A stretch of DNA of 64,000 bases from Candidatus Adlerbacteria bacterium (GTDB taxonomy: Bacteria; Patescibacteriota; Minisyncoccia; Phycocordibacterales; SBAW01), in the NCBI GenBank assembly GCA_028286685.1, contig JAQBRA010000002.1, positions 1,073-65,072 on the forward strand, given 5' to 3'. How positions within the stretch are numbered: the first letter of the stretch is position 1; each line of letters starts with the position of its first letter. A program made the position numbers and the translations under genes. The notes under the pieces are model-generated. The model was given only the letters and a program-made list of their open reading frames with translations, was not told the origin of the DNA and did no database searches. This document shows, one piece after another, positions 50,368 through 60,944 of the stretch.

Positions 50368-50880
50368 ATGGCACGAGAAAGGCGATCATTGTTTGAGTGG
50401 CTTACGGGGAGCCAAGGCGAAGCGGACTACTCTTTTGACGAACTCGAGCAAGGCGGCGCCTCTTTTGCCGCAACCCCGGCCCGCGGAGGCCGCGTCCCGG
50501 TCCATTCACCAAGCGCTCCCATGCCCCTGCAGGAGCCCGAGGAGGAACCAGCGGGAGAATTGGCCGTCGATGTCTACCAGACCCCGACCCATATCGTCAT
50601 TAAAGCCATGATAGCTGGCGTTAAGCCTGATGATCTCGACGTTTCCATAACCCGCGATATGGTTACTATCCGCGGCAAGCGCGAGCGCCATACCGAGGGT
50701 ACTGCAGGCGACTTTTTCTTCCAGGAACTCTACTGGGGCGCTTTTAGCCGCACCATCGTCCTGCCCCAGGAGGTGGAGATAGAAGAGGCTGAGGCTTCCG
50801 AGAAGCACGGCCTCCTCATTGTGCGCCTCCCCAAGCTCGACAAGGGCCGCCAGGCAAAACTCAAGGTCAAATCGAATTAG
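50368..50880 (+). CDS. Hsp20/alpha-crystallin family small heat-shock protein
   Basis: Alpha-crystallin domain LAVDVYQTPTHIVIKAMIAGVKPDDLDVSI...LLIVRLPK. Confidence 0.8.
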   Translation: MARERRSLFEWLTGSQGEADYSFDELEQGGASFAATPARGGRVPVHSPSAPMPLQEPEEEPAGELAVDVYQTPTHIVIKAMIAGVKPDDLDVSITRDMVTIRGKRERHTEGTAGDFFFQELYWGAFSRTIVLPQEVEIEEAEASEKHGLLIVRLPKLDKGRQAKLKVKSN

Positions 50881-50887
50881 GTTCTAG

Positions 50888-50933
50888 CCATAAAGTAAAA
50901 GACCTGCCGCAGGGCAGGTCTTTTACTTTATGG
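50888..50933. terminator. perfect 21-bp stem hairpin with GCAG loop between convergent hsp20 and tRNA-Phe
   Basis: CCATAAAGTAAAAGACCTGCC-gcag-GGCAGGTCTTTTACTTTATGG. It abuts the tRNA-Phe 3' end. Confidence 0.55.
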
Positions 50934-53712: not shown

Positions 53713-53787
53713 ACTGTGCGGAATAGAAGCTGGGACTTATATTCCTTCCCTCGCTCGCAAATAATAGCGGGCTTTATTTGTCTCACT

Positions 53788-53961
53788 CGGGTGCGGAATG
53801 GGAATCGGTCAGGCGTTCGTATAATGCCGTCGCATTATACGCCGCACGACCCTGCCTCGCTCCCGTGCCCGCTGGCACGGGGCCCGCTCCGGCTTTCGAT
53901 TCTCCACACAACCCGCCCCGCGGGTCGTTCATTCCGCACTCTTGTCACTATAGTTCCTCGG
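53788..53961 (-). repeat. tRNA-3'-end-associated composite element, copy 2 (Gly). Same architecture as copy 1, with Gly-specific antisense and sense segments
   Basis: The minus strand carries the antisense tRNA-Gly 3' end TGCGGAATG-[aacgaCCCGCgggGCGGGttgtgt]-GGAGAATCGAA. The conserved core AAGCCGGAGCGGGCCCC...GCGAGGCAGGGTCGTGCGGC...GAACGCCTGACC follows. It ends with the sense copy GATTCCCATTCCGCACC. Confidence 0.6.
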
Positions 53962-54032
53962 TGCGGAATGGGAGAATCGAACTCCCGCCCGTTGCTTGGG
54001 AAGCAACTGTTCTACCACTAAACCAATTCCGC
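53962..54032 (-). tRNA. tRNA-Gly (CCC)
   Basis: Reverse complement reads GCGGAATTGGTTTAGTGGTAGAACAGTTGCTTCCCAAGCAACGGGCGGGAGTTCGATTCTCCCATTCCGCA. Confidence 0.8.
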
Positions 54033-60599: not shown

Positions 60600-60930
60600 A
60601 AAGATGGGGACAGCAAGGCGAAACCCCGGCAGTTAGCCGGGGTCCTCGCATTTAGCGCGCGCGTCTGTAAGCCGAGTTCTGTCGTGGGCTGCAATTTATC
60701 TGGGCCCAGAGTCGCCCCTGGGCTCGAGCGGCACTCCGCAGTTGCCTGCGGCACGGCCTTGCACCCGGGTAGGGATTTTGCCGTTTCACCCGAACTAAAT
60801 CGGTTCGTCACTGTTCGCACCCCTTACGACCGCTAATATCGTACGGCAGGCGTTACCTGCTACCTTGCTACTGCAGTTGCCCGCAGTGGGAGCTCGGACT
60901 TTCCTCTCCGTCTTGCGACAGAGCTGCAAC
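60600..60930 (-). ncRNA. rnpB: RNase P RNA (bacterial type A)
   Basis: The minus strand contains GAGGAAAGTCCGAGCTCC (P4 5' strand), AGCAGGTAACGCCTG, GGGTGAAACGGC and CACGACAGAACTCGGCTTACAG (P4 3' strand). The ends are approximate. Confidence 0.75.
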
Positions 60931-60944
60931 CAAACGCGCTTTTA

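Follow-up and report, generated by a model that had tools for sequence, protein, structure and literature searches.

We report that a small structured element lies behind the tRNA-Gly(CCC) gene in a 64,000-nucleotide (nt) stretch of contig JAQBRA010000002.1 from a Candidatus Adlerbacteria bacterium; this whole stretch, at its full length, is referred to as the window. The element has a 5' arm antisense to the 3' end of its own transfer RNA (tRNA), a covarying core and a sense copy of the same tRNA end. It very probably belongs to a real, uncatalogued family of structured elements that is restricted to the Candidate Phyla Radiation (CPR, or Patescibacteria), is tied to the 3' ends of tRNA and transfer-messenger RNA (tmRNA) genes, and is folded on the sense strand. 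The genomes of these bacteria are tiny and have little spare DNA, yet about half of the tRNA genes in the sampled loci of the clade precede this uncatalogued RNA structure. To our knowledge, there is no bacterial RNA class described so far whose copies each carry an arm made to match the 3' terminus of the tRNA ahead of it. As for function, the reading that we favor, with a probability of roughly 40%, is that the family consists of cis-transcribed RNA modules that would gate the maturation or the availability of the tRNA 3' end.

The element behind tRNA-Gly(CCC)

The tRNA-Gly(CCC) gene occupies positions 53960-54032 of the minus strand (located by ARAGORN; 70.4 bits with the Rfam tRNA model), with A73 at 53962. 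All parts of the element lie on the same strand and are given here in the order in which they follow the tRNA. The first 22 nt (53940-53961) form an unconstrained spacer, or trailer, read directly from the sequence, and a scan of the minus strand detected no terminator- or promoter-like site in it. The antisense arm then comes in two parts. X'a (GTGCGGAATG, 53930-53939) is antisense to tRNA-Gly nt 65-73 plus the first base of the trailer, and X'b (GGAGAATCGAA, 53895-53905) is antisense to nt 54-64, that is, to the T-loop and the 3' strand of the T-stem. Between them, folding predicts a hairpin, ACGACCCGC-GGG-GCGGGTTGT with the loop GGG (53908-53928), which divides the arm where the acceptor stem meets the T-stem. 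The target of the arm, X1, was placed by complementarity alignment at 53962-53981 (tRNA-Gly nt 54-73), and X'a and X'b together are the exact reverse complement of these nucleotides (20/20). This minus-strand order had been proposed in an earlier, sequence-only reading of the window, with which the sequence is identical; the hairpin, however, has 9 base pairs (bp) and not the 5 given there.

X'b adjoins the core directly. The core, AGCCGGAGCGGGCCCC...GCGAGGCAGGGTCGTGCGGC-(GTATAATGC GACG GCATTATAC)-GAACGCCTGACC, extends over 53807-53894 as delimited by a covariance model (CM), covariation and RNAalifold. The CM match to it (53804-53899) scores 93.1 bits with E=4e-16 (calibration was shortened, and E-values are rough). 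Within the core, helix P-alpha pairs GCC (53891-53893) with GGC (53854-53856) and encloses an internal loop, GGA/GA, together with the P2 hairpin; P3 (53807-53851) contains, besides a conserved G.U pair, a U.C mismatch, a G bulged out across from AA, an upper stem of 10 bp and a GACG loop. Last comes the sense arm, X2 (CGATTCCCATTCCGCACCCGAG, 53786-53807), a direct repeat of tRNA-Gly nt 56-73 plus trailer. It reads CGAT--TCCCATTCCGCA+CCCGAG, with a 2-nt deletion relative to the tRNA-Gly 3' end and trailer, and it is able to pair with X', closing the element. A scan found no promoter belonging to the Gly unit itself. The earlier proposal, namely that this is the second complete copy of an element linked to tRNAs and that both its antisense and its sense arm are specific to tRNA-Gly, is upheld by our reading of the sequence and by alignment.

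Covariation and structure of the core

Across the family, the element is about 95 nt long and consists of highly conserved junction nucleotides followed by two covarying hairpins, P-alpha/P2 and P3. We applied a hand-derived structure to alignment A2, which holds 68 copies, and used as controls the same structure with its 3' partners slid by 1-3 columns. Standard pairs filled 93.8% of the cells, compared to 33-39% in the slid controls; both sides had changed in 31 of the 34 pairs; and none of 500 shuffles attained any of the observed covariation measures. For the 30 copies of the Gly/Cys type in alignment A5, 99.2% of the cells were paired (28-38% when slid), with compensatory changes in 21 of the 33 pairs. 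RNAalifold yielded the same helices independently of the hand-derived structure. These results agree with two earlier suggestions: that the element is a structure rather than drifting sequence, and that the core blocks are conserved between the Gly and Cys copies with compensatory changes in the intervening stems.

The 3-bp GCC/GGC helix becomes GGC/GCC in eight copies and GAC/GUC in two; inside it lie the P2 hairpin, which is variable, and a conserved internal loop with NNA facing GA. In P3, the G.U pair is retained in 66 of the 68 copies, and in a second subfamily a C-G pair takes the place of the U.C mismatch; its other features are the bulged G across from AA, a variable stem of about 10 bp and the GACG loop. 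On the opposite strand, the conserved G.U pair would read as an A.C mismatch, and so would each of the many changes from G-C to G-U; the folded strand is therefore the tRNA-sense strand.

The same data bear on the possibility that nothing functional is present, the similarity being due to chance in GC-rich sequence, to neutral duplicated tRNA ends or to a plus-strand coding region. A 101-amino-acid open reading frame (ORF) on the plus strand (53716-54021) does overlap the Gly element. However, this ORF has no Pfam match and runs antisense to the tRNA and to the covarying structure; it is best treated as an artefact, as had been suggested before. With CM scores of 79-107 bits in the 178 copies described below and covariation far above all controls, this explanation is hardly credible, and we regard it as refuted by covariation and recurrence. 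A 24-nt block of the core occurs three times in the window and never in 100 dinucleotide shuffles; its third occurrence revealed a copy at tRNA-Lys. A CM built from 68 relatives finds exactly three copies in the 64 kb, at tRNA-Gly (93.1 bits), tRNA-Lys (92.9 bits) and tRNA-Cys (78.7 bits). The next best match is at 23 bits, so the similarity is not that of low-complexity GC-rich sequence. Both copies reported earlier, at tRNA-Gly and tRNA-Cys, are thus borne out, but the total is three rather than two.

Distribution of the family

With a pattern derived from the core, we searched a collection in which each prokaryotic species is represented by one genome. The pattern matched 53 genome loci, all of them in Patescibacteria except for one chance match in Deltaproteobacteria, which was later rejected by the CM; the collection scans relied on one exact core pattern, and diverged subfamilies are under-sampled. 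The source labels of the genome loci are Adlerbacteria, Paceibacterota, Nomurabacteria, Kaiserbacteria and Minisyncoccia. Covariance model R1 found 77 copies in the 53 genome loci and 99 copies in 73 metagenome contigs. Altogether, 178 copies were obtained, all in CPR genomes of the Paceibacteria type and in metagenomes. A looser pattern matched 46 of the 2.9 million viral contigs of IMG/VR, and the CM confirmed none of them; a phage origin was rejected on this ground.

Several metagenome-assembled genomes (MAGs) that bear units are labelled "uncultured Candidatus Saccharibacteria" (L003, L013, L046, L048, L049 and others), and in at least two of these (contigs of 754 kb and 590 kb) LepA is 86-88% identical to the LepA of the window. 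Judged from sequence, the Saccharibacteria label on these MAGs is doubtful.

Units with insertions of 15-55 nt in the P3 hairpin still score 72-88 bits (L010:3338-3447, L124:1249-1368 and L133:2269-2419). Diverged structured sequences with the motif GGGGTCGGGAA...TTCCCG were also seen behind arms antisense to the 3' ends of tRNA-Ser or tRNA-Leu (L038 at about 2830-2900; L037 at about 4100-4200, minus strand; L029:2500-2600; L007 at about 1840-1900). The GGGGTCGGGAA core motif was looked for in the window and is absent from it. The logic of an antisense arm may exist with different cores.

When the 4227 models of Rfam 15, which cover the named ribozymes and riboswitches as well as tRNA-like and CPR motifs, were run on the window at gathering thresholds, only tRNAs and RNase P RNA were returned. 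At E<=10, nothing overlaps the Gly unit, and the Cys and Lys units give no meaningful score, the only matches being chance ones of the microRNA type on the Lys hairpin. Literature searches found no description of the element. They brought up TIGR-Tas guide arrays, which we take to be unrelated in size and layout.

Position and two architectures

About 80% of the 178 copies lie 34-120 nt behind a tRNA or tmRNA gene on the same strand, or follow another copy in tandem. Of the 79 copies in the genome set, 54 have a tRNA on the same strand 34-114 nt ahead of them, and 8 further ones stand in tandem; the remaining ones are mostly at locus edges or behind intron-containing or degenerate tRNAs. The independent metagenome set gave 67 of 99 copies behind a tRNA, 11 in tandem and 6 at contig edges. 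Units also follow tRNA genes with group I-like introns that ARAGORN misses (L043:3560-3900, minus strand; L171:1600-1700). Group I introns are common in the tRNAs of Patescibacteria, those dealt with in the published account being in the anticodon loop (PMC13011429). One copy stands behind tmRNA, with an arm antisense to the tmRNA 3' end, and one aberrant copy is located in the 3' untranslated region of rplL, ahead of the rplL terminator. At least 20 isoacceptor types are involved; in the sampled loci, 55 tRNAs have a unit and 56 have none.

The units fall into two types. Type A, to which the Lys copy of the window belongs, is found with tRNAs for Ala, Arg, Ile, Leu, Lys, Phe, Val and Trp. Its 5' arm is the 3' half of a long, often perfect, terminator-like hairpin and continues straight into the core; the 5' half of this hairpin overlaps the tRNA 3' end by 1-5 nt. 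Type B is found with Asp, Cys, Gln, Glu, Gly, Ser, Tyr, Met and tmRNA and includes the Gly and Cys copies of the window. Its 5' arm is a two-part complement of tRNA nt 54-73, which often reaches a few nt into the trailer; in 15 of 17 copies, a hairpin of 8-11 bp, with sequences that are unrelated, interrupts it close to where the acceptor stem and the T-stem meet. Across Ser, Cys, Gln, Glu, Gly and Tyr, X' has 0-1 mismatches with its own tRNA. The sense arm of type B, X2, follows the core as a direct repeat of tRNA nt 56-73 plus 2-7 nt of trailer. It is perfect in L001 (25 nt) and in L007 and L114 (20 nt each); elsewhere, it is broken at one spot, the T-loop/T-stem border, by indels of -2, -2, -3, -4, +3 or +22 nt, or is truncated. 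X2 is less conserved than the antisense arm. At L040:3783-5060, two small membrane-protein ORFs (about 1 kb) lie between tRNA-Glu and its unit, with GGGTCA repeats at the borders, and the X2 of this unit carries a 22-nt hairpin insertion in common with L019, L030 and L134.

One conserved scaffold with about 20 different, precisely matched arms might also be expected of a family of trans-acting guide RNAs, in which the core would serve as a scaffold binding one protein, X' would guide it to the cognate pre-tRNA or tRNA gene, and the tRNA promoters would be used. A guide in two parts around a hairpin is also reminiscent of bridge RNA loops and of the pocket of H/ACA RNAs, by resemblance only. 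However, every guide lies beside its own target, and cis action is simpler. In addition, the two guide halves pair contiguously and leave no target base unpaired, type A guides mostly cover trailer that is not conserved, and no candidate protein was found by ORF clustering over 52 loci. We therefore consider trans-acting guides quite improbable.

Both kinds of RNA that the split arm recalls were rejected as relatives. H/ACA guide RNAs share the two-part guide flanking a 9-bp hairpin, but pairing in the Gly copy is contiguous, and there are no unpaired target bases, no lower stem and no ACA. The bridge (seek) RNAs of IS110/IS1111 come from the non-coding end of an element that also encodes a DEDD recombinase, and they are defined by two internal loops, the strands of which base-pair to both strands of the target and of the donor. 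In our element, both halves of X' complement the same (sense) strand contiguously; neither a DEDD recombinase ORF beside any unit nor a recurring protein family was found.

Competing helices and a possible role in 3'-end maturation

The folding energies given here are thermodynamic predictions that leave out kinetics, co-transcriptional folding and tRNA tertiary structure. When the Gly unit is folded alone, X' pairs with X2 and the core is closed (z = -5.8). When tRNA-Gly and the unit are folded together, X' is predicted to pair with tRNA nt 54-73 and the 5' acceptor strand of the tRNA with X2, at -124.6 kcal/mol versus -110.8 kcal/mol for the parts folded separately. The minimum-energy fold pairs X'b with its own tRNA in 24 of 25 type-B loci and is 4-24 kcal/mol better than the parts apart. 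For type A, 59 of 65 loci show pairing between the five final bases of the arm and the tRNA end or trailer, and a mean of 4.4 of the last 8 tRNA bases are drawn out of the acceptor stem. As the complementarity of the arm to the tRNA reaches three bases nearer the junction than its complementarity to X2, the helix formed by tRNA and arm abuts the conserved junction.

According to the reading that we favor, the element would be transcribed within the tRNA precursor, X' would zip onto the tRNA 3' end and trailer, and with the resulting helix abutting the conserved junction, the tRNA 3' terminus would be docked on, or sequestered by, the core. In type B, X2 would compete for X', and X':X2 pairing would close the core, so that three mutually exclusive helices would act in the manner of a sequestor and an anti-sequestor. 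Through some protein, ligand or RNA-catalyzed step, the module might then gate 3'-end maturation or availability. The cassette could be gained and lost between duplicated tRNA 3' ends acting as homology arms among genomes with the same tRNA; entry and exit would take place by homologous recombination at the conserved tRNA end, and a broken X2 would stabilize the cassette. With regard to transcription, tRNA-Cys and tRNA-Leu of the window are 178 nt apart with the Cys unit between them, and promoters and terminators are absent from the gap; this unit must therefore be co-transcribed in a polycistronic precursor. If the module does gate 3'-end maturation, it would represent a new control layer on the translation apparatus and the first cis-regulatory RNA behind a tRNA.

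Several points weigh against such a role. We infer the function of the element throughout. In type A, a terminator-like hairpin stands between the tRNA and the core, so that production of the core may depend entirely on read-through. For most copies of this type, moreover, the closing helix with X2 has only 2-3 bp, so that the three-helix switch is clear only for type B. X' may never invade a folded tRNA, since neither tertiary structure nor folding during transcription enters into the calculated energies. No partner protein or ligand emerged from the neighbors in the window or the ORFs of 52 loci. Finally, arrays of up to five diverged units, relics of deleted units and 95%-identical cores at different tRNAs look more like the traits of a selfish element.

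The location of units directly 3' of tRNAs that mostly have no encoded CCA, and the fact that the helix between X' and the tRNA end adjoins an invariant junction, would also suit a device that processes the tRNA 3' trailer. In that case, the core would either cleave itself as a small ribozyme or offer a landing site to a nuclease (RNase III, P or Z). In analogy to theta ribozymes, X' might serve as an internal guide, bringing the tRNA 3' end or the trailer into the active site. Junction conservation of this kind is typical of catalytic or tightly bound RNAs. A precedent for ribozymes that trim tRNA trailers is provided by the theta ribozymes, related to that of hepatitis delta virus (HDV), which are reported directly behind phage tRNAs (PMC10879173). 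Such a device is nevertheless unlikely. No Rfam ribozyme matches, even at E<=10; about half of the sampled tRNAs manage without a unit; and the junction-proximal tRNA nucleotides are 70-73 in type A and 54-56 in type B, so that one fixed cleavage geometry cannot give the mature 3' end in both.

The theta/HDV-like ribozymes share with our element that a small structured RNA lies right behind the tRNA and is co-transcribed with it. They differ in that our element has no double pseudoknot, is chromosomal in CPR bacteria rather than phage-borne, and possesses an antisense arm and a repeat of the tRNA end. Membership in this class was rejected, since covariation gives two plain hairpins and an arm helix, not a nested double pseudoknot, and Rfam gives no match.

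A catalytic role of another kind comes to mind because X'b brings two sequences together at the junction, tRNA nt 54-56 and the beginning of X2, which follow the order of P1 and P10 of group I introns. In type B, tRNA nt 54-56 are paired with the 3' part of X'b, and the start of X2 with its 5' part, as in the internal guide sequence of these introns, and a potential "5' exon end" and "3' exon start" would meet at the junction of the element. The core could thus be a small catalytic RNA that would cut the tRNA T-loop and join X2, a splice-like exchange of the tRNA 3' half for a "spare part". We rate this as very doubtful; if it were true, the core would be a new ribozyme class. In reverse, the reaction would be the route by which the element inserts itself into tRNAs. 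In a milder version, a 3'-located riboswitch could sequester the tRNA 3' end and gate its maturation. Beyond the geometry at the junction, no resemblance to group I introns was seen, and identity with one was rejected: the core has about 90 nt and two hairpins, compared to at least about 200 nt for a P3-P9 core, tRNA-Gly is intact (70 bits), and no intron model matches. With the tRNA complete and X2 often defective, splicing would be neither needed nor productive.

Riboswitch junction aptamers (purine, thiamine pyrophosphate) resemble the element in having hairpins around a near-invariant junction, a closing helix with an alternative upstream partner, and tandem arrangements. The conserved junction and the helices that are mutually exclusive in silico fit this comparison, but the position 3' of a tRNA is atypical, as riboswitches lie 5' of messenger RNAs. 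Here, the sequestered partner would be the tRNA 3' end, and the element has no known ligand, a P1 of 2-3 bp in type A and no Rfam match.

Gain, loss and turnover

Exact-protein searches for close strains, in which insertion polymorphism might show, led back only to the same organism. The history at tRNA-Gly was therefore compared in relatives anchored on LepA, at about 90% identity. A bare tRNA-Gly, that is, an empty site, is found in L106 and L107, and empty tRNA-Cys and tRNA-Phe sites were also found. The metagenome contig L114 has an orthologous tRNA-Gly with a unit and a perfect 20-nt repeat, and its downstream flank matches that of the empty sites (for L114 and L115, orthology was judged by the tRNA allele and flanks in common). 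The cores of the window Gly copy and of L114 differ at 9 of 96 positions, and all nine differences preserve the structure: six constitute three doubly compensatory P3 pairs, two change a pair to G.U, and one is a loop base. X'a is identical in the two, the spacer of 18-22 nt cannot be aligned, and the parts flanking the spacer are 90-100% identical. Purifying selection on a resident structure would produce such a pattern.

A third, partial tRNA-Gly 3' end, X3 (CTATTCCGCACAG, 53714-53726, minus strand, 1 mismatch), abuts the stop codon of the HxlR gene, and the HxlR terminator (53753-53772, plus strand) is situated between X3 and X2. X3 carries the ancestral CAG trailer, matching relatives L106 and L102, and is probably the footprint of an older tRNA-Gly allele. 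With this trailer beside the HxlR stop, the whole block of tRNA-Gly and unit has probably replaced that older allele. At L102:4860-5090 and L104:4880-5110, a complete tRNA-Gly(CCC) with inverted leader and trailer flanks of about 18 bp is nested in an older tRNA-Gly, of which two remnants are left, nt 1-27 on the 5' side and, on the 3' side, the part from the anticodon loop onward.

Copies within one genome mostly differ in their variable stems; in one genome, the tRNA-Arg unit and the tRNA-Ala unit have cores that are 95% identical. Behind a single tRNA, 2-5 units can stand in tandem, and such arrays combine deeply diverged core subfamilies (L137:2507-2880, minus strand; L013:3073-3431; L162:2740-2936), and each unit of an array retains a tRNA-specific 5-mer (GTGCG, GTGGA or GTGCT). 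The order of homologous units is swapped between L162 and L041. There are 5'-truncated relics of units and, frequently, internally deleted ones. A unit's own 5-mer is repeated after 29% of type A units versus 3% in controls, and flanking repeats range from 4 to 27 nt.

Many of these features point to the main rival of the gating module, a selfish and non-autonomous mobile cassette. An enzyme encoded elsewhere (a recombinase, transposase or reverse transcriptase) would insert the cassette at tRNA 3' ends and duplicate them. The fold would form in a single-stranded DNA or RNA intermediate, in which X':X would mimic the double-stranded end of the tRNA gene, and any host function would be secondary. 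Consistent with this notion, the insert is bounded by 20-27-nt direct repeats of the tRNA 3' end in L001, L007 and L114, and both occupied and empty sites occur among relatives. The 3' ends of tRNA and tmRNA genes are classic integration sites, and the sublocations at which integrases cross over in tRNA genes reportedly match both repeat positions, the T-loop and the extreme 3' end. The arrays in which every unit keeps its 5-mer, the recurrence of the 5-mer after type A units, the truncated and deleted relics and the near-identical cores at different tRNAs within one genome all suit a mobile cassette, and X2 is broken at a single spot, like a recombination joint.

Other results do not fit. No integrase, transposase or reverse transcriptase is encoded in the window, where the neighbors are of the housekeeping type (infB, rbfA, lepA, HxlR, gyrA, ftsZ and similar genes), and none recurs beside units. 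When 536 ORFs from 52 loci were clustered all against all, no family was present in more than 7 of the loci, and the top clusters, which were not run through Pfam, contain no obvious enzyme of these three kinds. The enzyme could act in trans. Not a single copy of the element was confirmed in the 2.9 million viral contigs. Copies within the same genome are old yet intact, mostly with different variable stems, and the changes between orthologues preserve structure, which indicates selection on each resident copy. How X' would be retargeted to about 20 tRNAs is left unexplained, and indels at the X2 joint are unexpected under conservative site-specific recombination. A selfish cassette thus seems possible, although on the unlikely side; if it is real, it would be a new kind of protein-less element that uses tRNA ends as target and homology arms. 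The gating module and the selfish cassette are not mutually exclusive.

Comparison with known mobile elements and repeats

Integrative elements that target tRNA and tmRNA genes through tyrosine-integrase att sites have in common with our element the duplicated tRNA 3' end on both sides, the positions at the T-loop and extreme 3' end, and the use of tmRNA. Direct repeats of the 3' part of the tRNA are present at 20-27 nt in L001, L007 and L114 and are decayed in the window. The insert itself is about 150 nt long and non-coding, with no integrase in the window and none recurrent in 52 loci. Integron attC and CTX attP sites likewise contain an internal inverted copy, by which a single strand can fold to imitate the target duplex, and they can form arrays at one site. 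In attC sites, imperfect inverted arms fold in one strand beside an IntI/attI platform, and it is the structure rather than the sequence that is conserved; X' and X2 are inverted arms with bulges, but the central part of our element is conserved in sequence and no integron integrase was seen. From all of these, the element differs by its size, the lack of an integrase, a covarying and sequence-conserved center, the indels at the X2 joint and its absence from phage collections.

REP/REPIN, BOX, ERIC and Correia repeats are also multi-copy, protein-less, structured and clade-specific, lie at the 3' ends of transcription units and at times form arrays. They have no locus-specific arm, are not tied to tRNAs and are far less conserved in primary sequence across genera. 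A miniature inverted-repeat transposable element or REP-like repeat was rejected, as the arms differ at every tRNA and the flanking repeats, of 4-27 nt, are not fixed in length. The primer-binding sites of retroviruses and long-terminal-repeat elements share a stretch of about 18-20 nt antisense to a specific tRNA 3' end. In our element, the arm runs into the genomic trailer and is split by a hairpin, no reverse transcriptase was found, and the CCA complement is absent (Gly) or imperfect (Cys), which led us to reject this assignment.

Other candidates did not hold either. A tRNA pseudogene with an insert in the T-loop was rejected because X'b is antisense, not sense, to the T-loop. Kinship to RNase P RNA amounts to an 8-nt match of AACGCCUG to P8, which we take to be due to chance. 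A fail-safe terminator or insulator was rejected, with a terminator-like site after only 10 of 71 units and no significant enrichment of convergent downstream genes (22/58 versus 17/62).

Whatever its function, the family accounts for spurious ORF calls and assembly breaks beside CPR tRNA genes, and the CM can be used for annotation.

Other copies and features of the window

The Cys copy, of type B and with the same layout as the Gly copy, lies behind tRNA-Cys(GCA) on the plus strand (6835-7006). It comprises X'a (6856-6863), the hairpin (6865-6885), X'b (6888-6898), the core up to 6986 and X2 (6986-7005). The tRNA-Leu(TAA) gene begins 7 nt past it. A 391-amino-acid ORF on the plus strand (6805-7980) traverses the Cys unit and tRNA-Leu; the true gene within it is probably 7105-7980, which has no Pfam match and is convergent with the Lys unit.

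The Lys copy, of type A, lies behind tRNA-Lys(CTT) on the minus strand (7992-8132), with its core at 8000-8092. A perfect 23-bp terminator-like hairpin begins within the tRNA-Lys 3' end, its 3' arm continues into the core, and an orphan GTGCG follows the unit. Long, perfect hairpins that start from a tRNA 3' end without being followed by a core were seen behind tRNA-Phe (50880-50931, minus strand), where the hairpin includes the encoded CCA, and behind tRNA-Leu(TAG) (8419-8470, plus strand). These two hairpins may be empty type-A sites.

The class A RNase P RNA of the window (60652-60942, minus strand) is only 291 nt long and scores 104.8 bits against a gathering threshold of 100; it is a reduced form, as expected for CPR bacteria.

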